DNA of 64,000 bases from Acidobacteriota bacterium (lineage in GTDB: Bacteria; Acidobacteriota; Vicinamibacteria; Vicinamibacterales; UBA8438). Location of the stretch: NCBI GenBank assembly GCA_022562495.1, contig JADFPE010000001.1:48946-112945 (forward strand), in the 5' to 3' direction. Shown in pieces: positions 1,949 to 54,169 of this stretch. Under the pieces are notes generated by a model, which was given only the letters and a program-made list of their open reading frames with translations, was not told the origin of the DNA and ran no database searches. A program made the translations under genes and the position numbers. Each line of letters opens with the position of its first letter. Position 1 is the stretch's first letter.

Positions 1949-2109
1949 CAGGGTCCGCGCAAGAATACGTTCCCATGATGGGGCGTTGAGGCGCCCGGCT
2001 GACCAGGCGCGAGGAGGGAGCATACGGGCAGGGTTCGACCGACGAGCAACGCCGCCAGGCGGGATGCATCGGCGGTCGACATCGGGACGTTATTCTTGCG
2101 CGGGCCCTG
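1949..2109. repeat. Conserved structured module, copy A1, closed by 26-nt inverted arms
   Basis: Arm CAGGGTCCGCGCAAGAATACGTTCCC (1949-1974) and arm GGGACGTTATTCTTGCGCGGGCCCTG (2084-2109) enclose a 109-nt core. The core is shared with 29336-29442 and 44227-44352. Confidence 0.8.
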
Positions 2110-2551: not shown

Positions 2552-2828
2552 CACGCTCCCGCGCTCCGGACCCTCTGTCCCGTCCCGGGCGTGCTGCCCC
2601 AATGCCGCGGGCGGGGCACTCCACCCGAGAGCACCAGGTGACAGAGCTCTGGGACAAGACGGCTAGTAGTCGGTGCTGAACGTCCCGCGTTGCACCGAGA
2701 CTCGCCGTGTTCGATGCCGCACTCGGTCAGCACACGGCACGACAAGGGAGAATACCGGCAGTATGCGACCGAGGAGATGCGATGCGGCGTCTATCGCATG
2801 CAGCGGGACTTTCACCACGGGCTGCTAG

Positions 2829-10174: not shown

Positions 10175-10676
10175 GAATCCCTCTCAAACAGTAGGTTGGT
10201 TCGATACGGCGGGACCGTTCAGCGGCAGGTTGAATTCCATCCGAGTTGCGTGTCCCGAGTCAGGGGTTGGCACACATTTTCCGGGCGGGGCATCCCGCGC
10301 GGGCGCCGCTGGGCTTCTCGCTCAGCGGGGTCGAGTACGGTCGGACTGTTCCCTCGTTGCGCCTCGCAATGGCCGGACGCGGCATGCGTACGACACCGGA
10401 CAATCGGTCCGCGAACTTCTGGCTCGGGACACTAGACGGACCTGGAGGGACAACGCTGCGGCCCGAGAAGGCCCTCACGCATTCCAGACACAGACCCGAG
10501 TTACGAACACGCGAAGCACCTGTTTCGTCGCTTCAGGAAGAAGGCTCGCGTTGCGCAGTAGGACGGTGATACGCACGGCCCGGCAACGATACACCCTCCG
10601 TGTGGGGTTTGCCGGGCGGCTGCAAAGCGCAGAAGTTATTCTACTACGCCTGCCCCGATTCGTAAACGGTCGATCG

Positions 10677-12086: not shown

Positions 12087-12100
12087 AGGGAGAAGAAACC

Positions 12101-12270
12101 TCAGTAGTCAGAAGTCAGAAGAGAGCCGGTCGGCTTCGCCGGCGTGCATGTGTCCTACCCGAGGCTCCCCTTACTTGTAGCGCTCCCGAGGCGCGATGAC
12201 CGGGGGGTCGATTTCTAGATGTCGGCGCAGCCTTCCAAAGCTCTCCTGCCTCCTGCCTTCTGACTTCTTG
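12101..12270. repeat. Composite inverted heptamer-array element between argG and argH
   Basis: Left arm TCAGTAGTCAGAAGTCAGAAGAGAG plus hairpin GCCGGTCGGCTTCGCCGGC. Right arm CTCTCCTGCCTCCTGCCTTCTGACTTCTTG. The unique core between them is roughly 100 nt. Confidence 0.8.
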
Positions 12271-12281
12271 TGCATTCGTGT

Positions 12282-13523: not shown

Positions 13524-13696
13524 GGAGGCAGGAGACAGGACGCAGGAGGCAGAAGAAAGCTGGACGGCTACGCCAGCTTCTTCCACGAACACGATCAACC
13601 CCTATCAGACAGGCGGCAATGACGAAGCTCGGCCGATCTACGACTCGCCCGGCCGCTCCGATTCCTCCTGTCTCCCGCCTCCTGTCTCCTGTCTCC
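13524..13696. repeat. Composite inverted heptamer-array element between argR and argG
   Basis: Left arm GGAGGCAGGAGACAGGACGCAGGAGGCAGAAGAA plus hairpin AGCTGGACGGCTACGCCAGCT. Right arm CCTCCTGTCTCCCGCCTCCTGTCTCCTGTCTCC. Confidence 0.8.
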
Positions 13697-20739: not shown

Positions 20740-20800
20740 CTGAAACTGGCGAAGCCCTCCGACTGTCCCCTGACTCCGGCCTCCTGACTTCGGCCTTCTC
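20740..20800 (-). repeat. Heptamer array plus hairpin unit (reverse orientation) between purD and purE
   Basis: The plus strand reads CTGGCGAAGCCCTCCGAC then TCCCCTGACTCCGGCCTCCTGACTTCGGCCTTCTC. This is the complement of the array-GGCTTCGCC unit. Confidence 0.75.
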
Positions 20801-20813
20801 GAGCATCTTCTCG

Positions 20814-22085
20814 CTATTGCGCCTTGCGTCCGATGTCGGTTCGGACCTGTTTGCGAGCGAACGTGATTCGCGCCACGGCGGCATAGGCGCATTCGATGGC
20901 TTCTGCCAAGTCGACGCCGCGGCCGACCACCGTGATCACCCGTCCGCCCGTGGTCACCACCGCGTCATCCCGAACGCCAGTACCGCCGTGGAACACCAGT
21001 ACCCCCGCGATCGCCGACGCGTCGTCGAGCCCCGCGATCGCCGCGCCGGTCTCGTAGGCCCCGGGATACCCGCCCGATGCGAGTACCACCCCGACGTGCG
21101 GGTCCCGCGTCTGGTCGCACGAGGTCGTCTCGAGCGCACCCCGCGCCGCCGCCTCGAGCAGTGGCGCCAGCTCGTCACGCACCATCGGGAGCACCACCTG
21201 CGCCTCGGGGTCGCCCAGGCGGACGTTGAACTCGATCACCCGGGGACCCTCGGCGGTGATCATCAGCCCGACATAGAGGAACCCCCGATACGGATGTCCC
21301 TCGCGGGCCAGCCCGTCGAGGACCGGCCGGACGATCTCGCATCCGATGCGACGCTCGATGTCCGGGGTCACCAACGGACTCGGCGCCAACGCACCCATCC
21401 CACCAGTGTTCGGACCCGCGTCACCATCGAAGGCGCGCTTGTAATCCTGGGCGGTTGGCAAGGCGAGCGCCTGACGCCCATCGCAGATCGCGAAAAACGA
21501 GGCCTCTTCGCCGACGAGACACTCTTCGATCACCACCCGGTGTCCAGCCTCACCAAACCGGTGATCGAGCATCGCGTCGCGCACCGCCTGCTCGGCCGCG
21601 GCGCGGTCGGGCGCGACGGTCACGCCCTTCCCAGCCGCCAGCCCGTCGGCCTTGATGACGACGGGGAATCCGAACTCCGGCCCCGCCACGACCGCGAGCG
21701 CCTCGTCCGCCCGCTCGCAGACGCGGAAGCGGGCGGTCGGCACATCGTGGCGCGCCATGAAATCCTTCGCGAATGCCTTGCTCGATTCGAGCTGGGCGGC
21801 GACACGGCTCGGACCGAACAACAGCCGGTCACGCGCCGCGAACAGATTCTGCACCCCAAGCGCCAGCGGCAGCTCCGGCCCGATGACGGTGAGATCGACC
21901 GCCTCCGCCTCGGCGAGCGCAAGCACGGCGGCCGGGTCCGACACGTCGAGCGGGTGCTGGCGCGCGACCTGTCTCGTGCCGGCGTTGCCCGGCGCGCACA
22001 CGACCTCGCTCACGCCGGGCTCGCGGTTGAGCTTCCAGGCCAGAGCGTGCTCGCGCGCGCCACTCCCGACAACCAGAATCTTCAT
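20814..22085 (-). CDS. purD: Phosphoribosylamine-glycine ligase
   Basis: MKILVVGSGAREHALAWKL N-terminus and an ATP-grasp core. Confidence 0.95.
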   Translation of the reverse strand: MKILVVGSGAREHALAWKLNREPGVSEVVCAPGNAGTRQVARQHPLDVSDPAAVLALAEAEAVDLTVIGPELPLALGVQNLFAARDRLLFGPSRVAAQLESSKAFAKDFMARHDVPTARFRVCERADEALAVVAGPEFGFPVVIKADGLAAGKGVTVAPDRAAAEQAVRDAMLDHRFGEAGHRVVIEECLVGEEASFFAICDGRQALALPTAQDYKRAFDGDAGPNTGGMGALAPSPLVTPDIERRIGCEIVRPVLDGLAREGHPYRGFLYVGLMITAEGPRVIEFNVRLGDPEAQVVLPMVRDELAPLLEAAARGALETTSCDQTRDPHVGVVLASGGYPGAYETGAAIAGLDDASAIAGVLVFHGGTGVRDDAVVTTGGRVITVVGRGVDLAEAIECAYAAVARITFARKQVRTDIGRKAQ

Positions 22086-25315: not shown

Positions 25316-25320
25316 GGGCA

Positions 25321-25548
25321 TCAAGGCGCGCACGTGCGCGCCTCGCGGTCGCGGAGTGGAGCCTTGGGGGTCCCCGCGGAGCGCCCGCGTGGGGTGCGGA
25401 GCAAAGCCCCGACTAAGGGTCCGCGCAAGACACAGGTACCCGTTTTGGGGCGTCAAGGCGCGCACGTGCGCGCCTCGCGGTCGCGGAGTGGGGCCTTGGG
25501 GGTCCCCGCGGAGCGCCCGCGTGGGGTTCGGGGCGAAGCCCCGACTAA
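25321..25548. repeat. Tandem direct repeat (2 x 96 bp, 132-bp period) rich in palindromes
   Basis: 25321-25416 and 25453-25548 are near-identical. Each contains the perfect 18-bp palindrome GGCGCGCACGTGCGCGCC and the hairpin CGGGGC-GAA-GCCCCG. The 36-bp linker carries GGGTCCGCGCAAGA, the motif also found at the A-module arms. Confidence 0.85.
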
Positions 25549-25554
25549 GCTACG

Positions 25555-26721
25555 ATGGCTGAGTTCAACATCCAGTCGGATTCCGTCGATGTCACGCGGA
25601 TCATGGAGCAGATCCGTCAGCGTATCCAGGAGAAACGCGGCAGGGACTACACCGAGCAACAGATACACGAGCTGGCCACCGTCAAGCTCGAGCGGTTTCT
25701 CGACCCACAGCAGGTACGGTCGGATCTGGTCGAGCACTACCGGCAACTCGAAGCACCGGAGCCGTTGGATCCGACCCCGCACGAGAGTCCGGGGCCAGAG
25801 CCGGAGCGGTTCGATTTCAACGAGGACACGATTTACGCGTCGTCCAGAGGACAGATGGGGAAACTGATCCGCCTGATCCGCAAGCTCTTGAACCCGATCC
25901 TCAAGCTGTTCTTCAACGTGAACTCCGTCGTGTTCGCGCTGTCGCGGCAGTCCGAGATCAACACCTGGACCTTGCAGCTCCTGCAGCAACAGGCCGACCT
26001 CGCCGAGCGTGTGACCACGCGGGCCGGCGCGAAGTTCGCGGCGCGCGAGGAGCTCGATGCCCTGAACTACGAGGTGCTCAACAACCTCGTGGTGGAGATG
26101 ACCCGGCTGTCGGTCGACATGAAGAACCACCGGAGTCTGGTGGAATCGGTTGCTAGCCGACTCGACTTCGACGAGCGGCGGGCACGCGCGCTGGAGTCGG
26201 TGGTCCAGAGTCGGTCCCCGCAACCGCCCCAGAACGCGGATGACGAGAGCACGTCGTCGACCGGGTCTGGCCGGACCCGCCGACGGCGGCGACGGTCGCG
26301 GCGACGGCCCGGTGAGACGGCGACGCCCGACTCGGGAACGCCCACCGCGGCCGCGGCGGGCGCCCAGGGCAACACCGCACAGCCGGCGCCGGACACCTCG
26401 ACGTCCCCAACGGACATGGCTGCGCCGGACATCGTGCCGCGGCCGAACAACGCCGCGGCGCCGGCGTCTACGCCGACCGTGGAACCATCGGCGATACCGC
26501 CGGAGACGACCCCAGCGCCCCCCGCCACTGCTCCGTCTCCAGACCCCGACCCGCGAACACCGCCAGCGGTGCCTCCGGTCGCCAACGCCGGGTCGCCGGA
26601 TCCACCCCCCACGCCACCGACCCAAGGTCCGAGCGATGCCCCCGCGCCGGCAACAGCGCCGGCGACCGAGACGGTCGCGCGGCCGTCCCCCCCAGGAGAC
26701 GCCCGCGCCGACGAGCAGTGA
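25555..26721 (+). CDS. Hypothetical protein: conserved helical N-terminal half, poly-Arg tract and Pro/Thr/Ala-rich tail. It leads the glycosyltransferase block.
   Basis: 388-aa ORF. The N-terminus SVDVTRIMEQIRQRIQEKRG and the later coiled-coil-like region look like a real domain. The tail contains RTRRRRRRSRRRP followed by about 150 aa of P/T/A-rich sequence. Its stop overlaps the next gene's start (GTGA). Confidence 0.6.
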   Translation: MAEFNIQSDSVDVTRIMEQIRQRIQEKRGRDYTEQQIHELATVKLERFLDPQQVRSDLVEHYRQLEAPEPLDPTPHESPGPEPERFDFNEDTIYASSRGQMGKLIRLIRKLLNPILKLFFNVNSVVFALSRQSEINTWTLQLLQQQADLAERVTTRAGAKFAAREELDALNYEVLNNLVVEMTRLSVDMKNHRSLVESVASRLDFDERRARALESVVQSRSPQPPQNADDESTSSTGSGRTRRRRRRSRRRPGETATPDSGTPTAAAAGAQGNTAQPAPDTSTSPTDMAAPDIVPRPNNAAAPASTPTVEPSAIPPETTPAPPATAPSPDPDPRTPPAVPPVANAGSPDPPPTPPTQGPSDAPAPATAPATETVARPSPPGDARADEQ

Positions 26722-28046
26722 AGCTCGCTGTCGTCGTCCAACGCTACGGCGCCGAGCTGAACGGCGGCGCCGAGCAGCATGCCCGGTATGTCGCTGAGCA
26801 CCTCGCGCGACACGCCGAAGTCGAGGTCTTGACGACCTGCGCGACCGACTACATCACGTGGCGCAACGAGCTCAACGCCGGTGTCGAGCGGGTGAACGGC
26901 ATCCCGGTCAGGCGGTTTCCGGTCAGCCGCGAACGCAACGTCGAAGATTTCGGTCGGCGGTCGACGCAGGTCTTCGAGGAGCCGCATTCGGTCGGTGCCG
27001 AGCTGGCGTGGTTGCGCAGCGAGGGACCGACCAGCCCGAGTCTCATCAATCATCTACGTCGGCACGGCGATGCCTACGACTACTGCATCTTCTTCAGCTA
27101 CCGCTACTACCATGCGTATCACGGCATCCGGATGGCGGGCCCACGGGCCGTGCTGGTCCCCACCGCCGAACGTGACCCGGCGCTGGGGCTGCGCATCTTC
27201 GGCGGCAGCTTTCGCCGCGTGCGAGCACTCATGTACAACTCGTACGAAGAGCGGGCGCTGATCAACGCGGTCTCGAACAACGCAGCCGTGCCGGGCGTTG
27301 TGGTGGGCATCGGGTCGGAGGTGCCGGCGCACCCGGAGCCGCAACGCTTTCGCCAGACAACCGGCATCGAGGGCCCCGTGCTGATATACGTCGGTCGGAT
27401 CGATGAGAACAAGGGCTGCCGCGAGCTGTTCGACTACTTTCAGCGCTATCTGCGTCTCTCGCCTCAGCTGACCCTCGTGCTGATCGGGAACACGGTCATG
27501 CCAATTCCCACGCACCCAAGGATTCGGCATCTCGGCTACGTGACCGATCAGGAGAAGTTCGACGCGATGGCGGCGGCCGACCTGCTGGTGATGCCCTCAC
27601 GCTACGAGAGCCTGTCGATGGTGACGCTGGAGGCATGGGCCCTCGGTCGCCCCGTGCTGGCCAACGGCCGCTGCGACGTATTGTGCGGCCAGTGTATCCG
27701 CAGCAACGGTGGACTCTACTACGAGAGCTACGAGGAGTTCGCCGAAACGCTGCACTCGATCGTCTCGAGCAGCGCCCTACGCACCGCGTTGGGCGCGAAC
27801 GGGCGGGCCTACTTCAACGCGCATTACACGTGGCCCGTCATCGAACGGAAGTATCTGGACATGCTCGACCGGTTGAATCGCGAGGACGCCGGGCAAGTGA
27901 CCCGGCCGGAGCCGCTGCCGGGTTGGTTCGGCCGGCGCCGGCGTGATCTACCGCCCGGCCGCCAGGTCGTGGACCGGCTCCCCACGGGGCCGGCGCCACG
28001 CGCCGGCTGCACCCAGGATGCCGGGCCTTCAGCAAGCGACGCATGA
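26718..28046 (+). CDS. Glycosyltransferase (GT-B fold, GT4-like), paralog type A
   Basis: MKLAVVVQRYGAELNGGAEQH N-terminus and C-terminal donor-binding region VMPSRYESLSMVTLEAWALGRPVLAN. Confidence 0.85.
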   Translation: MKLAVVVQRYGAELNGGAEQHARYVAEHLARHAEVEVLTTCATDYITWRNELNAGVERVNGIPVRRFPVSRERNVEDFGRRSTQVFEEPHSVGAELAWLRSEGPTSPSLINHLRRHGDAYDYCIFFSYRYYHAYHGIRMAGPRAVLVPTAERDPALGLRIFGGSFRRVRALMYNSYEERALINAVSNNAAVPGVVVGIGSEVPAHPEPQRFRQTTGIEGPVLIYVGRIDENKGCRELFDYFQRYLRLSPQLTLVLIGNTVMPIPTHPRIRHLGYVTDQEKFDAMAAADLLVMPSRYESLSMVTLEAWALGRPVLANGRCDVLCGQCIRSNGGLYYESYEEFAETLHSIVSSSALRTALGANGRAYFNAHYTWPVIERKYLDMLDRLNREDAGQVTRPEPLPGWFGRRRRDLPPGRQVVDRLPTGPAPRAGCTQDAGPSASDA

Positions 28047-29278
28047 CTGCGGGGTCTTCATCGACGCGTCCCGCGGTACATCAGGTCCTGGCCACGCTCG
28101 GCTATGGTGACGCCATCGGCAACGAGGTGCTTGGCATCCGCGCCGTGCTACGCACGGCCGGCTACGCATCCGAGATCTTCGTCGAGACCGCCGACCCGCG
28201 GCTGGAGCCGCTTACCCGCGACTATCGGGATCTGATCGATGCCTCACACCCCGACAACATTCTCATCCACCATTTTTCGATCGGGTCCCGGGCATCGCGG
28301 ATCGCCTACGCCCTCGCGGACCGGATGGTGCTCGTCTATCACAACATCACGCCCCCCGAGTACTTCGTCGGGGTGCACAAGGACCTCGTGCGGCAGTGCT
28401 ACAGCGGCCGACGCGAGCTGCTCGCCTACGTGAACCGGTGCGACCTGGCGCTGGGCGACTCGGAGTTCAACCGCCAGGAGCTCGAGCAGTTCGGGTTCCC
28501 GCGTACGGGTGTGCTCCCGGTCGTCCCGAGCTTTGCCCACCTGGACACGACACCGGACCGCACCCTGGTCTCGGAGTTCGACGACGAACGGATCAACATC
28601 CTGTTCGTCGGTCGCATTATCCCGAACAAGCGGATCGAGGACGTCATCCGCTGCTACCAGGCGTATCGGGTCATGCATCAGCCCCACGTCCGGCTGCTGC
28701 TGGTGGGCGCCTACGGCGGGTTCGAGTCGTATCTCGCCACACTCCATCACCTGATCGCGACCCTGCACGTGCCGGATGTGCATATCATGGGTCACGTCTC
28801 GAACGCCGAGCTGACCGCGTGCTACGACGTGGCAGACCTGTTCCTGTCGGCGAGCGAGCACGAGGGCTTTTGCGTGCCGCTCGTCGAGGCGTTCCACAAA
28901 CGGATACCGGTGCTCGCCTACGCCGCGGCGGCGGTGCCCGCGACGATGGACGGCGCGGGTGTCCTGTACGAAACGAAGGACCCCAGACATGTCGCCGCGA
29001 TCATGGACACGGTGCTCTCGAACCCTGCGCTCGAGTCGGAGATCGTGCGGAGCCAAGACGCGGCGTTGGACCGGCTCCTGGCGCGGGACTTCGGCGGGCT
29101 CCTGTTGGATGTCGTCGACCAGGTGACCCGATCTCCTCGGCTCCCACGCGCCGAGGTGCGGTGGGACTTCTGGCAGCGGTTCGCGGAATGGGAACGCCTG
29201 GAGGAGCTGCGTCTCTACCGCCCGTCCGCCTACAAGGCGCTGCCCTTCGCGCCCGGAGAGCGCGGCGAGAACCCGTAA
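28043..29278 (+). CDS. Glycosyltransferase (GT-B fold, GT4-like), paralog type B
   Basis: ILFVGRIIPNKRIED and LSASEHEGFCVPLVEAFHKRIPVLAY (E-x7-E region). The start overlaps the upstream stop. Confidence 0.85.
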   Translation: MTAGSSSTRPAVHQVLATLGYGDAIGNEVLGIRAVLRTAGYASEIFVETADPRLEPLTRDYRDLIDASHPDNILIHHFSIGSRASRIAYALADRMVLVYHNITPPEYFVGVHKDLVRQCYSGRRELLAYVNRCDLALGDSEFNRQELEQFGFPRTGVLPVVPSFAHLDTTPDRTLVSEFDDERINILFVGRIIPNKRIEDVIRCYQAYRVMHQPHVRLLLVGAYGGFESYLATLHHLIATLHVPDVHIMGHVSNAELTACYDVADLFLSASEHEGFCVPLVEAFHKRIPVLAYAAAAVPATMDGAGVLYETKDPRHVAAIMDTVLSNPALESEIVRSQDAALDRLLARDFGGLLLDVVDQVTRSPRLPRAEVRWDFWQRFAEWERLEELRLYRPSAYKALPFAPGERGENP

Positions 29279-29335
29279 GGAATGGCTCCGCGCTTCGGAC
29301 CTCGTCTAGTAGGATGCTGAGAAACGACAGGGATC

Positions 29336-29442
29336 GGTTTTCGGAGCGCGGCGCCCGGCTGGCAAGGCGCGAGGAGGGAGCAGCCAGGCGGGCTGTGACC
29401 GACGAAGCAACGCCGCCAGGCGGGACGCCCCGTCCGAAAACC
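29336..29442. repeat. Conserved structured module, copy A2, closed by a different 10-bp stem
   Basis: GGTTTTCGGA (29336-29345) and TCCGAAAACC (29433-29442) enclose GGCGCCCGGCTGGCAAGGCGCGAGGAGGGAGCA...CAACGCCGCCAGGCGGGACGCC, which is homologous to A1 and A3. Confidence 0.75.
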
Positions 29443-29447
29443 AGGCC

Positions 29448-30512
29448 ATGGTGATCAACCAGTGGCTGCCGGCCGCCCATCGCGGCGACGCGGTGGGAGA
29501 CAGCGCTCGTCGTGTGCGCAGGTTGCTGCGCGCACGAGGCCACGACTCGGACGTCTACGCCCTGACCATCGATGACGACCTGCGCGGGGAGATCCGCGCC
29601 TTCTCAGACCCGGCGGCACGGCAGGGCGATGTCACGATCCTGCACTTCGCGATCGCCTCGCCGATGAGCGACGCGCTGGCGTCCCTGCCGGCCGGGAGGG
29701 TCATCCAGTATCACAACATCACACCGGCGCATTTCTTTGCCGGCTACGACGCCGGGATCGTTGCCCTGGTGACCCGTGGGCGCCAGGAACTGGCCGGTCT
29801 GGCCGGACAGGTCGACCTGGCGTTGGGCGACTCCGAGTACAACCGGCAGGAGCTCGAGACCCTCGGGTTCGCCACGACCGCCGTGTTTCCGATCGCGGTG
29901 AACACGGCGCGTTTGACCGAGGCGCCGCCGCGCCCGGCGCTCGAACGGGTGTTACGCGACGGGCTGACCAACATCCTCTTCGTGGGGCGCATCGCCCCGA
30001 ACAAGAAGCTCGAGGACCACCTGCGGCTCGCGGAGCACTACAAGCGGTATGTCGACCCGTTTCACCGGTTCATCTTCGTGGGCCGGGAAGACGCCTGCCC
30101 CCGTTACTACGCGATGCTCCGTGCCCTGATGACCCGATATCGAATGACAAGCGAACGGTTCTGGTTCGTCGGTTCGGTGCCGGATGCGGACCTGGCAGTG
30201 TTCTATCGGACCGCGAGCGCCTATGTGTCTCTGAGCGAGCACGAGGGGTTCTGTGTCCCGTTGCTCGAGGCGATGGCCACCGGCGTGCCGGTGCTGGCGT
30301 ATGCCTCGACGGCGGTTCCGGAAACGCTCGGTGGTGCCGGTATCACGTTCTCGCCAAAGGACTTGGAGCATGCAGCGGAGATGCTCGGACTCCTGGTGTA
30401 CGATGAGAGTTTGCGCGCGGACATTCTCGAGGGTCAGCGACGCCGATTGACGGATTTCACCGACTCTCGGTTCGACACCCACCTCGACCGGCTCGTGGCG
30501 CATTTCTCGTAG
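29448..30512 (+). CDS. Glycosyltransferase (GT-B fold, GT4-like), paralog type B-prime
   Basis: ILFVGRIAPNKKLED and LSEHEGFCVPLLEAMATGVPVLAY. Clearly paralogous to 28043-29278. Confidence 0.85.
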   Translation: MVINQWLPAAHRGDAVGDSARRVRRLLRARGHDSDVYALTIDDDLRGEIRAFSDPAARQGDVTILHFAIASPMSDALASLPAGRVIQYHNITPAHFFAGYDAGIVALVTRGRQELAGLAGQVDLALGDSEYNRQELETLGFATTAVFPIAVNTARLTEAPPRPALERVLRDGLTNILFVGRIAPNKKLEDHLRLAEHYKRYVDPFHRFIFVGREDACPRYYAMLRALMTRYRMTSERFWFVGSVPDADLAVFYRTASAYVSLSEHEGFCVPLLEAMATGVPVLAYASTAVPETLGGAGITFSPKDLEHAAEMLGLLVYDESLRADILEGQRRRLTDFTDSRFDTHLDRLVAHFS

Positions 30513-30574
30513 GACGGAACGAATGGGAGATCCACCCGATGCATGATTGTGCAGACACGTGCTCTGACGTAGAC

Positions 30575-30628
30575 GCTGGCGAAGCCCACCGGCCGTCTCC
30601 TGTCTCCTGTCTCCTGTCTCCCGACTCC
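30575..30628 (-). repeat. Heptamer array plus hairpin unit (reverse orientation) between two glycosyltransferase genes
   Basis: GCTGGCGAAGCCCACCGGC followed by CGTCTCCTGTCTCCTGTCTCCTGTCTCCCGACTCC, i.e. (CCTGTCT)n. Confidence 0.85.
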
Positions 30629-30651
30629 GGTAGAGCGTCCTTCTAGATCCC

Positions 30652-31992
30652 GTGAAGATCGCGTTCATCGTCCAACGCTACGGCGCCGAGATACTCGGCG
30701 GCTCCGAATATCACTGCCGGTTGATCGCGGAGCGGCTCGCCGGCCGGCATCAGGTGGAGGTGCTGACCACCTGCGCGCGCGACTACATCACCTGGAAGAA
30801 CGAGTATCCGGAGGGCGCGGACCGGATCCGCGGTGTGACCGTGCGACGCTTCGCGAACGACCGCACGCGGGACCTGGCGTCGTTCAACGAGTACTCCGAC
30901 TGGATCTTTCACCACGACCATTCGTCGGCGGACGAGGAGGAATGGTTGAGACGACAAGGGCCGTGGTGCCCGGGCCTGCTCGCGTATCTCGACCAGCACC
31001 ACCGGTCGTATGACGCGCTGATCTTCTTCACGTATCTGTATGCGCCGACGGTCCTCGGGCTGCGGGTGGACCCGGCCCGCAGCATCTTGGTGCCAACGGC
31101 GCACGACGAGCCGGCGATCCGACTCGGTCTCTACCGGGAGGTGTTCTCGCTTCCGGCCGGAATCGCCTACAACACGAACGTGGAGCGTGGGTTTCTCAGG
31201 CAGCTGTTCTCGATCGGCGCGAAGATCGAGGAGACGGTGGGCTGCGGCGTCGAGCTGCCCCCGTCGCACCTGCACGACCTGCCGACGAGCACGCCGGACA
31301 CCTCGACAGACGGCGCCGATCAGACTGACCAACCGGAGCGGGAGGAGGCGGACGACAACGGCGCGCTCGGCTCGCCGCTGTCCGCTCGTGGCGCCGTGTT
31401 CCGGCGACGGCACCGTCTGTACGGCCCGTTCGCGCTCTACGGCGGACGGATCGACCCCGGAAAGGGCTGCGAGGAGCTGCTCGATTACTTCCACAGCTAC
31501 GCCGAGTCGGACGGTGACGCGTCTCTGGTGCTGATGGGACTCAAGCTGATGCCGATTCCCGACGCGCCCCACCTGCGGTTTGCCGGCATGCTGTCGGAAG
31601 TGGAGCGGCTCGAGGCGCTCGAGGCGGCCACGGTGGTGGTGGTGCCGTCACCCTTCGAGAGTCTGTCGCTGCTGGCCCTAGAGGCGTTTTCCGTGGGCAC
31701 ACCGGTGCTCGCCAATGCTCGCAGCGACGTGCTGACGGACCACTGTCAACGCAGCAACGGCGGTCTGTATTACAGCAACCGCGACGAATTCCGGGAGTGC
31801 CTGCGGTTGCTGATCCACAACGCCCCCCTGCGTGCCGCCATGGGACGTCAGGGACGCGACTACGTGCGTACCCACTACCGGTGGGACGCCATAATCGGCA
31901 AGTACGACCGGCTCATGTCCGGCTTGCAGCGCTCGCGGCCGGTCGGACGCAACCGGCGCGCCGGACGCCGCCGCGGTGGGGGGAAGACCTAG
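30652..31992 (+). CDS. Glycosyltransferase (GT-B fold, GT4-like), paralog type A-prime
   Basis: MKIAFIVQRYGAEILGGSEYH and VVPSPFESLSLLALEAFSVGTPVLAN. Paralogous to 26718-28046, with an extra acidic Ser/Thr-rich insertion (TSTPDTSTDGADQTDQPEREEADD). Confidence 0.85.
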   Translation: MKIAFIVQRYGAEILGGSEYHCRLIAERLAGRHQVEVLTTCARDYITWKNEYPEGADRIRGVTVRRFANDRTRDLASFNEYSDWIFHHDHSSADEEEWLRRQGPWCPGLLAYLDQHHRSYDALIFFTYLYAPTVLGLRVDPARSILVPTAHDEPAIRLGLYREVFSLPAGIAYNTNVERGFLRQLFSIGAKIEETVGCGVELPPSHLHDLPTSTPDTSTDGADQTDQPEREEADDNGALGSPLSARGAVFRRRHRLYGPFALYGGRIDPGKGCEELLDYFHSYAESDGDASLVLMGLKLMPIPDAPHLRFAGMLSEVERLEALEAATVVVVPSPFESLSLLALEAFSVGTPVLANARSDVLTDHCQRSNGGLYYSNRDEFRECLRLLIHNAPLRAAMGRQGRDYVRTHYRWDAIIGKYDRLMSGLQRSRPVGRNRRAGRRRGGGKT

Positions 31993-41763: not shown

Positions 41764-41773
41764 AGAGAGACTC

Positions 41774-41929
41774 GAGAAGGCAGACGTCAGAAGGCAGACG
41801 TCAGGAAAAAACCGGAGGGCTTCGCCGACGTGGGCTCGCTGCAACCAGGTTGGCTGAAAACGATGCGCTGGCTGCACTAATGCTGGCGACAGCCGACCGC
41901 TTCATTCTGCCTTCTACCTTGCTGACTGC
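41774..41929. repeat. Composite inverted heptamer-array element downstream of gpmI
   Basis: Left arm GAGAAGGCAGACGTCAGAAGGCAGACGTCAGGA plus CCGGAGGGCTTCGCCGACG. Right arm CATTCTGCCTTCTACCTTGCTGACTGC. The core contains ATGCTGGCGACAGCCG, also present at 47262-47277. Confidence 0.75.
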
Positions 41930-44163: not shown

Positions 44164-44177
44164 TGACACGTGACCCG

Positions 44178-44225
44178 CAGAAGTCAGAAGGCAGACGTCC
44201 GAAGAACGTCGGTGGGCTGCGCCAC
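44178..44225 (+). repeat. Heptamer array plus hairpin unit downstream of the mutase gene
   Basis: CAGAAGTCAGAAGGCAGACGTCCGAAGAA followed by CGTCGGTGGGCTGCGCCAC. Confidence 0.75.
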
Positions 44226-44226
44226 T

Positions 44227-44352
44227 TTAGGGTCCGCGCAAGAATAAGTTCCCCCGTTGTGGGGCGTCGAGGCGCCTGGCTGGCACGGCGCGAAGAGGGA
44301 GCATACGGGCAGTATTCGACCGACGAGCAACGCCGCCAGGCGGGATGCATCG
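44227..44352. repeat. Conserved structured module, copy A3
   Basis: TTAGGGTCCGCGCAAGAATAAGTTCCC...GAGGGAGCATACGGGCAGTATTCGACCGACGAGCAACGCCGCCAGGCGGGATGCATC aligns along its length with 1951-2062, with few substitutions. Confidence 0.8.
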
Positions 44353-44518
44353 CCAGCCGAATGCTACCGTCATTATGACCGGGGCCACTTAGTCGAGAGA
44401 AGAGCTACAACGTGCGGTGGTGGGTCGTACGAGAACCCACCGTCGAGGCACCTGCAGTCCGGAGCCTAGAGCCTGAAGCCGAGGACAGGCTACCGGTCTT
44501 CAGCAACCAGTTCGAGAC

Positions 44519-47174: not shown

Positions 47175-47280
47175 GGAGTCAGAAGGCAAAAGAGCATCGG
47201 TGGGCTGCACCGTCGACAACGGACCGCGTCGGTTTGATTCGGTCAGACCGGCTGAAGTGATGCTGGCGACAGCCGTCTCA
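47175..47280 (+). repeat. Heptamer array, hairpin unit and shared core segment
   Basis: GGAGTCAGAAGGCAAAAGAGCA, then TCGGTGGGCTGCACCG, and later GATGCTGGCGACAGCCG, which is shared with the 41774-41929 element. Confidence 0.65.
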
Positions 47281-47806: not shown

Positions 47807-47823
47807 GACACTCGTGTCCTGCC

Positions 47824-48840
47824 TCAGAGGTTCGCGACATCATTCCCAGGTGGGGCATCGCGCCTGGACGGCGGTGCTCCTCGTGATACAAGATCCCCCA
47901 ACCCCGCGCTGCCCGTGCCGATCAGGACCGACAGCCCGAGCGCGACGGCCACAGCAACGGCACGGCGTCGCAGGCGGATGCTGAGCGCCGGCGCGCGCGG
48001 CGTGGCCCGCGGCAGCTCGAGACTCTCGGACGCGGCCTTGACGATGTCGGCGCCGATGACGTTGGTGCGGTCGGCGAACCCGGCCAGCAGAGCACGGTCG
48101 CACAGCAAGTTGATGACCCGTGGGATCCCTTGCGACAGCCGGTGGATCGCCTCGAGCGCCCGCGGCCGGAACCTGACCGACGCCCCGCCGCCCGCCACAC
48201 TCAGGCGGTGGATGACGTAGGCCGCCACCTCGTCCGGGGTCAGCGGATGCAACTCGTACGTGATCGACACTCGCTGCGCCAGTTGTCGGAGCTCAGGCGC
48301 ACGGAGCGTGGTGCCGAGACCCAGCTGTCCCACCAGGACGATCTGCAGGAGTTTCTCCTTGTCGGTTTCGAGGTTCGAGAGAATGCGAAGCTGTTCGAGC
48401 ACCTGCGGTGGCAGGTTCTGCGCCTCATCGACGATCACCATGGCGCAGGCACCGAGCGGCAGCAGGGATCGCAGAAAATCGTTGAGCGTGTTGATCAACG
48501 CCTGTTTGCTGATCTCGCTCATGTAGCCGTGCCTGAGCTCGTCACGCGAGACGACGCCAAAATCCTGCAGGATGCGCTTGAGCAGATCAGTCTCCGAGAG
48601 GAACGGATTGAGCAAGAGCGCACTGAAGGTCCGTCGGTCGCGACGCTCGAAGAGCGCCCGACACAACGTGGTCTTGCCGGTGCCGATGTCCCCGGTGACG
48701 ACGACGAAACCCTCGCGACGATGCATCGCGTACTCGAGCAGATCGCACGCGCTGGCGTGGGTCTTGCTGCGAAACAGGAATTTCGGGTCCGGCGTCAGAC
48801 TGAAGGGCTTCTCGGTGAAACCGTAGTACTCCTCGTACAT
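47824..48840 (-). CDS. ExeA/GspA-like AAA ATPase (PEP-CTERM/secretion-associated type)
   Basis: N-terminus MYEEYYGFTEKPFSLTPDPKFLF, Walker A GDIGTGKTT, Walker B MVIVDEAQNL. Start set at ATG 48840 after GAGGAG. Confidence 0.85.
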   Translation of the reverse strand: MYEEYYGFTEKPFSLTPDPKFLFRSKTHASACDLLEYAMHRREGFVVVTGDIGTGKTTLCRALFERRDRRTFSALLLNPFLSETDLLKRILQDFGVVSRDELRHGYMSEISKQALINTLNDFLRSLLPLGACAMVIVDEAQNLPPQVLEQLRILSNLETDKEKLLQIVLVGQLGLGTTLRAPELRQLAQRVSITYELHPLTPDEVAAYVIHRLSVAGGGASVRFRPRALEAIHRLSQGIPRVINLLCDRALLAGFADRTNVIGADIVKAASESLELPRATPRAPALSIRLRRRAVAVAVALGLSVLIGTGSAGLGDLVSRGAPPSRRDAPPGNDVANL

Positions 48841-49597: not shown

Positions 49598-49623
49598 CAA
49601 GAAGTCAGAAGTCAGACCTCAGA
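49598..49623 (+). repeat. Heptamer array unit
   Basis: CAAGAAGTCAGAAGTCAGACCTCAGA. Confidence 0.7.
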
Positions 49624-54081: not shown

Positions 54082-54139
54082 GAAGAAGGCAGAAGGCAGA
54101 CTTTTCTTCTGCCTTCTGCCTTCTGCCTTCTGCCTTCCC
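54082..54139. repeat. Heptamer-array hairpin (GAAGGCA/TGCCTTC repeats), terminator-like, between the VWA and ZIP genes
   Basis: GAAGAAGGCAGAAGGCAGA - CTTT - TCTTCTGCCTTCTGCCTTCTGCCTTCTGCCTTCCC. The left arm is complementary to the right arm, and the right arm carries two extra heptamers. Confidence 0.85.
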
Positions 54140-54169
54140 GATGATCCCGCCTCTGCTATCATCCCGCGC

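Follow-up and report, generated by a model that had tools for sequence, protein, structure and literature searches.

Does a structured module that ends immediately upstream of a start codon regulate the gene behind it? This question is raised by a conserved module of approximately 110 nt at positions 29336 to 29442 of a 64,000-nt stretch of an Acidobacteriota genome (Vicinamibacterales, contig JADFPE010000001.1), hereafter called the window. The module precedes a glycosyltransferase (GT) gene, and an earlier note on this DNA described it as a conserved core with unrelated closing stems, the 3' arm of which abuts the ribosome-binding region of that gene. We concluded that it is very probably one copy (copy B) of a type II MITE (miniature inverted-repeat transposable element), a non-autonomous DNA transposon of approximately 160 bp with a conserved, folded core, and that this core is maintained on the lineage of the element. 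In the sequences compared, one core appears with several types of arm that are unrelated to each other, and the target duplications are of both the TA and the TNA kind. The module is of little interest as a GT regulator and of moderate interest as a mobile element with a strongly constrained core.

The alternative suggested by the position of the module is a host-selected cis-acting RNA, a leader or riboregulator of the GT gene at 29448, the stem of which occludes or positions the ribosome-binding region. The predicted fold of copy B is one stable rod (-71 kcal/mol, z = -5.05) that stops 5 nt short of the ATG. It lies between two co-oriented GT4 glycosyltransferase genes and no promoter or terminator was predicted at it; therefore, it is probably present in the mRNA. 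The covariation of the family (see below) is also real. The perfect 10-bp closing stem that was previously noted, GGTTTTCGGA/TCCGAAAACC, was found at 29336-45 and 29433-42, and an inverted-repeat scan showed that it forms the outer end of an imperfect repeat of 28 nt with 75% complementarity. The spacing of the module from the gene was also as described: ATG 29448 follows the stem end at 29442 by 5 nt. This ATG is the first possible start after an in-frame TAG TAG at 29307-12, and the protein read from it aligns with its paralogue from residue 3.

However, comparisons with sister strains contradicted a regulatory role. A GT protein that is 100% identical to the 29448 product is encoded on eight contigs of other assemblies. 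In all eight, the upstream intergenic region is 116 nt long (169 nt in the window) and has no relation to copy B from just past the upstream stop to the same ATG; at the site of copy B, it holds a different repeat, (CAGGAGA)n with a hairpin. The genes flanking the site are 96.0-99.3% identical to those of the sister strains, with changes mostly at third positions, and the next intergenic region beyond the GT gene is 100% identical. The site of copy B is thus wholly different between strains that are 96-99% identical, and its alternative allele carries another repeat. Judging from these alleles, copy B is a strain-specific allele that is dispensable for the GT gene; since strains with an identical GT have an unrelated sequence up to the ATG, it is not a dedicated regulator. 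Furthermore, the core occurs beside unrelated genes, in both orientations, in hundreds of places, and the element showed neither the fixed gene association nor the fixed upstream orientation of a cis-regulatory leader. The closing stems are MITE arms, and that of copy B is the residue of one. A leader of the GT gene is, therefore, highly improbable, and the proposal of cis-regulation is largely refuted.

The extent originally assigned to the module was correct for the core and stem, but not for the left boundary, because the element reaches beyond 29336 to 29309. The spacing from the TA to CGGAGCGCGG is 32 nt, as in the related element L068, and the last 5 nt of the left arm (29336-40) open the 10-bp stem; the nearest relative is L007. 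On the right, copy B lacks approximately 25 nt and the right terminus in comparison with full-length right arms, such as ...CCGGAAGGCACTTCTGATTCAGCTGAGACAGGCCACTAG, and the arms retain only 10 bp of pairing. As the right arm is missing after TCCGAAAACC, copy B is an immobilized copy that has probably been partly deleted. Its core is intact: the covariance-model score was 94.1 bits, and every covarying pair is formed (N-N' = G-C, XX/YY = GG/CC; hairpin GCAGCC-aggcg-GGCTGT at 29380-96).

Relatives were gathered by scanning one genome per species for the exact 19-mer GCAACGCCGCCAGGCGGGA. This 19-mer was present in at least 119 genomic stretches, most of which were from metagenome-assembled genomes (MAGs) of Vicinamibacterales or other Acidobacteriota, and a covariance model gave 104 hits at E <= 0.001 in 100 loci. 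True members also carried the labels Nitrospirales (a complete chromosome), Longimicrobiales, Ectothiorhodospiraceae, Sedimenticola, another gammaproteobacterium, Noviherbaspirillum album (an isolate), Desulfobacterales, Bradymonadales, Phycisphaerales, Streptosporangiaceae, and Solicola sp. (an isolate); about eight phyla are represented among the genome labels. Both core halves and full flanks were available in 67 members. The layout of a full element is TA (usually in CTAG) or TNA (CTAAG, CTTAG, or TGA) on both sides, an arm of approximately 40 nt, the core, and the complementary arm. Full elements measure about 160-166 bp, with a median palindrome span of 166 bp. Among 56 elements with strong arms, the flanks were CTAG/CTAG in 16, CTNAG/CTNAG in 4, and another TA on both sides in 11, which is far from chance in DNA with a GC content of approximately 68%; those of L107 were CTGG/CTGG. 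Except for a clean empty site, the sequence-level features of a MITE were found: a small (under ~300 bp), non-coding element with terminal inverted repeats and a target-site duplication (TSD), dispersed copies, and, for one subfamily, an autonomous element with the same termini.

Approximately 40% of gene-adjacent copies end exactly at the stop codon of the neighbor, the core in these copies being approximately 30 nt from the open reading frame (ORF). One explanation for this is that the core is a host-beneficial RNA module (for example, a 3'-end stabilizer, an RNase III/E processing site, or a transcription insulator) carried by the MITE, so that insertions at gene ends were retained. The hairpins are very stable (mean -102 kcal/mol), and similar proposals have been made for ERIC, Correia, and REP elements, for which the precedents are that Correia elements are cleaved by RNase III and that ERIC has RNase E effects (PMC10969869). 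However, copies at stop codons had no orientation preference (roughly 15 sense to 10 antisense) and no U-tract or terminator signature, and a generic hairpin does not need a 19-nt block that is invariant in eight phyla. Moreover, the association with stop codons is explained by the TA/CTAG target preference in genomes with approximately 68% GC. We regard a benefit to the host as quite unlikely.

The window itself contains six copies, of which three are high-scoring (A, B, and C; core of approximately 85-105 nt) and three are decayed (D, E, and F), the latter having been found with the covariance model and an arm-terminus search (Table 1). As previously noted, a core is common to A, B, and C: a 33-nt 5' core motif (<=3 mismatches) had three sites, all on the + strand (1990-2022, 29350-29382, and 44271-44303; shuffle expectation, 0.00), and the 3' block AGCAACGCCGCCAGGCGGGAYGC is common to all three. 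The arms of copy A are 28 nt long and 86% complementary, with flanks that are not identical. On the two sides of copy C, at 44227-9 and 44389-91, there is a perfect target duplication, TTA/TTA. In copy D, the clamp is destroyed, the apical domain is recognizable at 2740-2776, and the 26-nt arms are 81% complementary. Copy E is fixed in related strains and, thus, was uninformative for strain comparisons, while a strain comparison of copy A was precluded because its flanking protein is not on record. The state of D, E, and F, together with the lost right arm of copy B, indicates that individual insertions decay.

A search for arm termini away from any core in the family loci (approximately 0.9 Mb) identified the autonomous partner. 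Three insertion sequences (ISs) of approximately 1.47 kb in Vicinamibacterales genomes (L009:848-2320, L070:6236-7706, and L019:4063-5537), with mutual identities of 70-84%, are bounded by CTAG|CAGCCCGTGGTGAAAG ... CCACGGGCTG|CTAG. Each encodes a protein of approximately 470 aa with DUF772 and DDE_Tnp_1; the best NCBIfam model was IS1182, followed by IS5. The family assignment is approximate because the score was below the curated cut-off (145 vs 270 bits, for a frameshifted copy). The ~20-nt termini of these ISs bound one MITE subfamily (L035, L047, L087, L095, and copy D of the window), and an IS (L019) and its MITE (L095) occur on one chromosome, OZ252227.1. Identity between IS and MITE is confined to the termini, which makes the family a type II MITE, and no clamp or core-like sequence was present in the three IS copies. 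The L009 copy appears to be frameshifted, with the transposase split between 918-2105 and a second frame, and the L019 IS adjoins a MITE of a different arm type. We also considered whether the core represents the joined subterminal ends of a parent IS; this was rejected because the three IS copies lack the clamp and copies with only the 3' half lie downstream of host genes, not transposases.

The partner also bears on the possibility of a REP/REPIN element mobilized by RAYT, or of a palindromic element of the IS200/IS605 type, that moves as single-stranded DNA (ssDNA). The hairpin is a strand-asymmetric, imperfect palindrome, and four of the six copies in the window are on one strand. However, those families lack terminal inverted repeats and TA/TNA duplications, both of which are present here, and the partner that shares the termini is of the DDE type. 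Orientations were mixed within loci with no GC-skew bias, and no GTAG-type REP signature was found; RAYT genes were not systematically searched for. An element of this type is scarcely credible.

The most conserved part of the element is not its ends but its interior. Among 55 elements of canonical length, mean pairwise identity was 34-37% in the outer arms, 46-56% in the inner arms, 68% in the apical domain, and 85% in the 5' clamp, although the latter was not used for ascertainment. The outer arms, at approximately 35% identity between subfamilies, are nevertheless complementary: 1982 Watson-Crick and 94 G·U pairs were counted among 2294 aligned positions (86% Watson-Crick over 59 elements). 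The description of a conserved core with unrelated closing helices was, therefore, accurate. RNAalifold predicted 28 pairs from 68 sequences, with compensatory changes in 17 of them. In these sequences, 93.5% of cells were paired, vs 30-48% when partners were slid. Double-change cells numbered 262 (101 +/- 6 in shuffles), pairs with double changes 17 (12.3 +/- 1.1), and further pair types 56 (45.6 +/- 2.5); none of 500 shuffles reached the observed value on any measure. The consensus structure thus has strong covariation support, for which the earlier note had proposed a test, and the internal pairing it had recognized corresponds to helix 2/3 of the consensus. Copies A and C, folded alone in 146-nt segments, were not more stable than shuffles (z of -1.2 and +1.2); support for the structure is at the family level and not from these three copies. 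The idea of a selected secondary structure holds for the family through its covariation, but not for single copies, which decay like remnants of mobile elements. We concluded that selection probably acts on the lineage of the element, not on each insertion.

Helices 2 and 3 belong to the basal clamp, as do two bulges (CAA and A), a conserved G·U, a GCAA block, and a GG that is invariant and faces a variable dinucleotide; the strands of the clamp are GCGCCCG-NN-UGGCAAGGCG and GCAACGCCGCCAGGCGGGAUG. Above it lies the most distinctive feature, a helix in which covarying Watson-Crick pairs are interspersed with three tandem G·A/A·G motifs, in the order C34-G96; G35·A95 and A36·G94; N37-N'93; G39·A92 and A40·G73; X41-Y72 and X42-Y71; G43·A70 and A45·G69; and the hairpin. 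Occupancy of the G·A positions was 49-62 of 68 elements. The pair 37-93 was C-G in 34, G-C in 18, and A-U in 9, and a G·U was conserved at 17-115 (55/68) and 46-68 (41/68). For the stem of the apical hairpin, at least a dozen alleles were distinguished. Two gammaproteobacterial members have an unrelated insert of 100-150 nt in place of the entire apical domain, exactly between GGCAAGG and GCAAC, which identifies the clamp as the invariant part.

Asymmetry between the strands was consistent. Within the arms, G·U exceeded A·C (94 to 39, p = 2e-6) and purine·purine exceeded pyrimidine·pyrimidine mismatches (127 to 52), with purines always on the strand shown. The + strand folded better as RNA in 63 of 68 elements (-101.7 vs -91.1 kcal/mol; Wilcoxon p = 8e-12). 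Shared ancestry inflates these counts, but their direction is consistent. These purine-sided asymmetries argue against a symmetric cruciform or a purely double-stranded role. Orientation was near random with respect to flanking genes (>E> 18, <E< 13, >E< 16, and <E> 11; 34:24 overall, using a crude GC3-based gene caller that missed some genes) and random with respect to the local GC skew (34 to 45). In each of the four orientation classes, the neighbors are unrelated genes. A DDE transposon leaves its copies in random orientation, and this randomness implies that selection on the fold, if there is any, is exerted on the lineage that propagates and not on resident copies.

It may also be argued that the single strand has no function: the palindromes would have been born or homogenized by hairpin-templated repair or gene conversion, and conservation would reflect recent horizontal spread or two inverted double-stranded sites. 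Random orientation to genes and GC skew and the decay of individual copies are in keeping with this, as are conversion-like swaps of the core center between strains and a copy in L005 (424-527), the 3' strand of which has been converted to a perfect complement (CCTGTCTGG / CCAGACAGG). However, homogenization should erase mismatches, and yet the asymmetric features persist across subfamilies and phylum labels: the three tandem G·A motifs, the G·U at 17-115, the CAA bulge, the A bulge, and the GG opposite NN, with purines always on one strand. At least a dozen apical alleles, and G-C, C-G, and A-U at one G·A-flanked pair, indicate long constrained divergence rather than recent spread, and the partner IS lacks the putative binding sites. 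We consider a structure that is purely a by-product to be unlikely.

Returning to a MITE with a maintained core, the evidence is compatible with the following model. IS1182/IS5-type DDE transposases encoded elsewhere would recognize the terminal inverted repeats (the outer ~20 nt of the ~40-nt arms, within the TA/TNA duplication) and mobilize the element in trans; the ~85-nt core, composed of the basal clamp and a replaceable apical hairpin, would travel with it. Trans-mobilization is suggested by the terminus match for one subfamily, and the other subfamilies may use related transposases. Insertion would occur at TA-containing sites, very often CTAG or the TAG or TAA of gene ends, and this is why copies abut genes. 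Copy B would have kept its left arm and core, with most of the right arm removed by a deletion that brought the core near the GT start. Copy B and the GT operon are probably transcribed together, with copy B as a hairpin of high stability; this would be incidental to the GT gene, since in the sister strains the same gene is expressed from upstream DNA that is unrelated. The core may be kept constant by selection on the lineage of the element, and it may act as a folded single + strand (purine-rich), either RNA or ssDNA. As a best guess, the invariant clamp, in which bulges and loops are conserved, would be a platform recognized by some widely conserved factor on which the spread or persistence of the element depends. 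Arms may be swapped or may co-evolve to match the available transposase, and recombination between copies may shuffle arms and core centers. More tentatively, the clamp and the three-G·A helix may constitute a new RNA or ssDNA module that binds a conserved host or transposase-associated factor and boosts trans-mobilization or retention; we regard this as possible, but doubtful. If true, one core could parasitize many IS1182/IS5-type transposases by exchanging its terminal repeats, and bacteria would thereby have an equivalent of the conserved, unexplained central domains found in short interspersed nuclear element (SINE) superfamilies.

Several observations weigh against this interpretation. 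An empty site, with one TSD copy and otherwise clean, was not found; the copy B site is replaced, not empty, in the sister strains. Partners for the arm types of copy B and of copies A and C were not found in the ~0.9 Mb examined, and the lack of core-like sequence in the IS copies leaves binding of the transposase to the core unsupported. Gene orientation and GC skew were null for an RNA role and a replication-fork ssDNA role, respectively, and, thus, gave neither independent support. The copies are related, so that G·U and covarying-cell counts are not independent events. Conservation of the 3' clamp is inflated because sampling was seeded with the exact 19-mer, and in 13 copies that were identified independently of the 19-mer, the clamp is seen to decay in situ. 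Several phylum labels derive from metagenome bins, and at least one is doubtful (L003, labeled Alphaproteobacteria, matches the Acidobacteria contig L073).

Table 1. Positions in the window of the parts of copy B, the adjacent gene, and the other copies of the element
Feature	Positions	Strand	Support
CTAG with TA target dinucleotide (29307-8), left boundary of copy B	29306..29309	+	CTAG/CTAG, CTNAG, or TA flanks at equal core distance in the family
Copy B left arm, 32 nt, full length	29309..29340	+	Length and position as in left arms of full elements
Copy B 10-bp stem, 5' strand GGTTTTCGGA	29336..29345	+	
Basal clamp, 5' half, GGCGCCCGGCTGGCAAGGCG (helices 2 and 3, 2x2 loop, CAA bulge)	29350..29369	+	
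Apical domain, strands CGAGGAGGGA / GACCGACGAA, tandem G·A motifs and covarying pairs	29370..29406	+	Alignment, RNAalifold
Basal clamp, 3' half, 19-mer GCAACGCCGCCAGGCGGGA	29407..29425	+	Identical in copies A, B, and C
Copy B 10-bp stem, 3' strand TCCGAAAACC, sole remainder of the right arm	29433..29442	+	Comparison with full right arms, inverted-repeat scan
GT4 glycosyltransferase gene, neighbor outside the element	29448..30512	+	Pfam Glycos_transf_1, 1.5e-19
Copy A, 157 bp and complete, flanks TCA and TGA, terminal inverted repeats of 25-28 nt (GGGTCCGCGCAAGAATA...)	1951..2107	+	88.2 bits
Copy D, decayed 160-bp element, GCAGCCCGTGGTG-arm subfamily, CTAG both sides	2666..2825	+	20.3 bits, E 0.0019
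Copy E, diverged 184-bp element, GTGTCCCGAG... termini	10250..10433	-	Terminus search
Copy C, 159-bp element, right arm decayed	44230..44388	+	94.7 bits
Copy F, remnant with right arm and decayed core	~47811..47925	-	15.4 bits

Recombination between copies may be seen in copy C, which is present in the sister strains with identical arms and flanks. Between strains (window 44277-44335 vs L128-L130), 16 differences (14 substitutions and 2 single-nucleotide indels) fall within 59 nt of the core, and just 2 substitutions are found in the remaining ~320 nt. The apical hairpin allele is wholly exchanged (CATAC/GTAT to ACAAAT/ATTTGT). This looks like short-tract gene conversion from another dispersed copy, a process by which the mosaic of arms and cores could have arisen. 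Each version of copy C is defective: that of the window has an A·C at N-N', and that of the sister strains has an additional T within the 19-mer.

Other loci contain rearranged elements. Independent half-elements (L092, L049, L104, L012, L031, L029, and L094; also L011, L088, and L021:1-120) retain only the 3' clamp, the right arm, and the terminus, with homology beginning 0-10 nt 5' of GCAAC or within the apical hairpin. Ordinary host genes are situated directly upstream of them, and the host ORF of L029 seems to continue into the element. The breakpoints are all near the center of the palindrome, as hairpin-tip breakage would predict; ascertainment by the 19-mer limits this inference. L005 (Nitrospirales OY820905.2, 1.104-1.112 Mb) holds five family copies in 8 kb in both orientations. 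At L005:424-527, the 3' clamp strand, now CCAGACAGG, is the perfect complement of its own 5' strand, CCTGTCTGG, and the conserved GG loop has been erased, showing that DNA-level correction of the palindrome (arm-to-arm) also occurs. The palindromes of L005 and L061 run approximately 30 nt past the element into similar A/T-rich flanks (AAAAAAATGTCTCATCACCAC...), which suggests insertion into another repeat or a longer composite element.

The region 26718-31992 holds four consecutive GT4 glycosyltransferase genes that form two paralogue pairs: 26718 and 30652 share 76-80% nucleotide identity across the first ~150 nt, and 28043 and 29448 share 37% protein identity. Genes upstream of copy B are ~96% identical to the sister strain and those downstream ~99%, a step that suggests a recombination breakpoint in the copy B intergenic region. 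Copies D and B both end a few nucleotides from the first ATG of the downstream ORF (2825-2831, CTAGATGG; 29443-29450, AGGCCATGG). This may be a coincidence, given the TA/CTAG target preference; the start of the ORF beside D (2829) is putative.

A second intergenic repeat family, which fills the copy B site in the sister strains, consists of runs of purine heptamers (CAGAAGK / CAGGAGA or the complement) followed by a short hairpin and GGGCTKCGCC. It was found in the window at 12094-12272, 13528-13694, 20746-20814, 30576-30626, 41768-41826, 44177-44223, 47177-47211, 49600-49623, and 54084-54153, and at L120:2885-3000. The number of heptamers beside copy C varies by strain, the window being 7 nt shorter after 44184. 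Window 25316-25549 contains two tandem 132-nt units (95% identical) with another palindromic core that is rich in GC (AAGGCGCGCACGTGCGCGCCT...). At their junction is a left arm of the MITE type, CTAA|GGGTCCGCGCAAGACAC (25416), that resembles those of copies A and C, and the array stops ~10 nt before an ATG at 25553. This resemblance suggests that the arm type of copies A and C may also carry another core.

Database searches did not identify an existing family. The window, copy B, and the canonical element were searched against Rfam, a check that had been proposed at the outset. Rfam 15 gave no match in the whole window at gathering thresholds, and at E <= 10 there was only noise, including a sub-threshold 16-bit Pyrobac-1 match to a GC-rich hairpin that is spurious. 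On the canonical element, the MIR1858 match (27 vs 137 bits) was equally a spurious match to a GC-rich hairpin. Literature searches with sequence strings and on MITE, IS1182, and Acidobacteria topics did not find a description of this family. The 19-mer was absent from IMG/VR, and blastn against the PLSDB plasmids gave no match. Viral carriage was rejected because nhmmer showed that all 120 viral hits to a 14-mer were chance matches.

Other candidate functions were dropped after inspection by eye. The TGGCA...TTGC spacing is wrong for a sigma-54 promoter, and the bulge and G·A are not adjacent, as a k-turn would require. Hammerhead and twister cores and 6S-like and SRP-like folds were also dropped. 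A CsrA GGA-loop decoy was rejected because the apical loop is unconserved outside Acidobacteria, a Shine-Dalgarno-like decoy because covariation moves the purine tract from one strand to the other, and a short encoded peptide because most variants contain stops.

The present results explain a recurrent GC-rich "structured RNA-like" signal in the annotation of Vicinamibacterales and other environmental genomes, and such hairpins beside start or stop codons should not be read as gene-specific regulators. The family is a clear case of a MITE with an interior that is far more conserved than the ends recognized by the transposase and that has a covarying, strand-specific fold. This interior is common to subfamilies with unrelated ends under many phylum labels. 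The question of why non-autonomous elements keep central domains is now approachable in bacteria, with cultured carriers (Noviherbaspirillum album and Solicola sp.) and a matching transposase.

Type II MITEs of prokaryotes share only terminal inverted repeats with an IS (PMC10969869). The present family resembles them in its size (~160 bp), lack of coding capacity, terminal inverted repeats, target duplications, and many dispersed, mostly intergenic copies, with IS identity limited to ~20-nt termini. It differs in that the internal core, not the terminal repeat, is the most conserved part and in having several unrelated terminal-repeat or arm types with TA and TNA duplications. The IS1182/IS5 partners, 1.47 kb in length with DUF772 and DDE_Tnp_1, have the same ~20-bp terminal inverted repeats and CTAG/TA flanks; in contrast, the module itself encodes nothing. 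TA, TNA, and YTAR duplications are typical of IS5-group elements. Among eukaryotic elements, CORE-SINE, V-SINE, and Deu-SINE have a central domain that is very widely conserved, terminal modules that match an autonomous partner, and a central-domain function that is unknown. However, these are retrotransposons of animals and the present element is a DNA transposon of bacteria, so that the similarity lies in the logic and not in descent.

ERIC/IRU sequences of Enterobacteriaceae and Vibrionaceae are also MITE-like, being TA-flanked imperfect palindromes of ~127 bp that are unusually conserved between genera, are transcribed as a long hairpin, and vary in their presence between strains (described in part in PMC10969869). 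They have no sequence similarity to the present family and are found in two gammaproteobacterial families with one arm type, whereas the present family spans about eight phylum labels and many arm types and has a defined IS1182/IS5-like partner. Correia elements (CREE/NEMIS) of Neisseria are MITEs of 100-155 bp with ~26-bp terminal inverted repeats, a TA duplication, a functional central IHF site, and mRNA hairpins that are cleaved by RNase III. Unlike the present family, they are restricted to one genus, and their core has no covarying rod with tandem G·A; to our knowledge, they have no partner transposase. In its behavior, the family described herein is closest to the ERIC and Correia elements.

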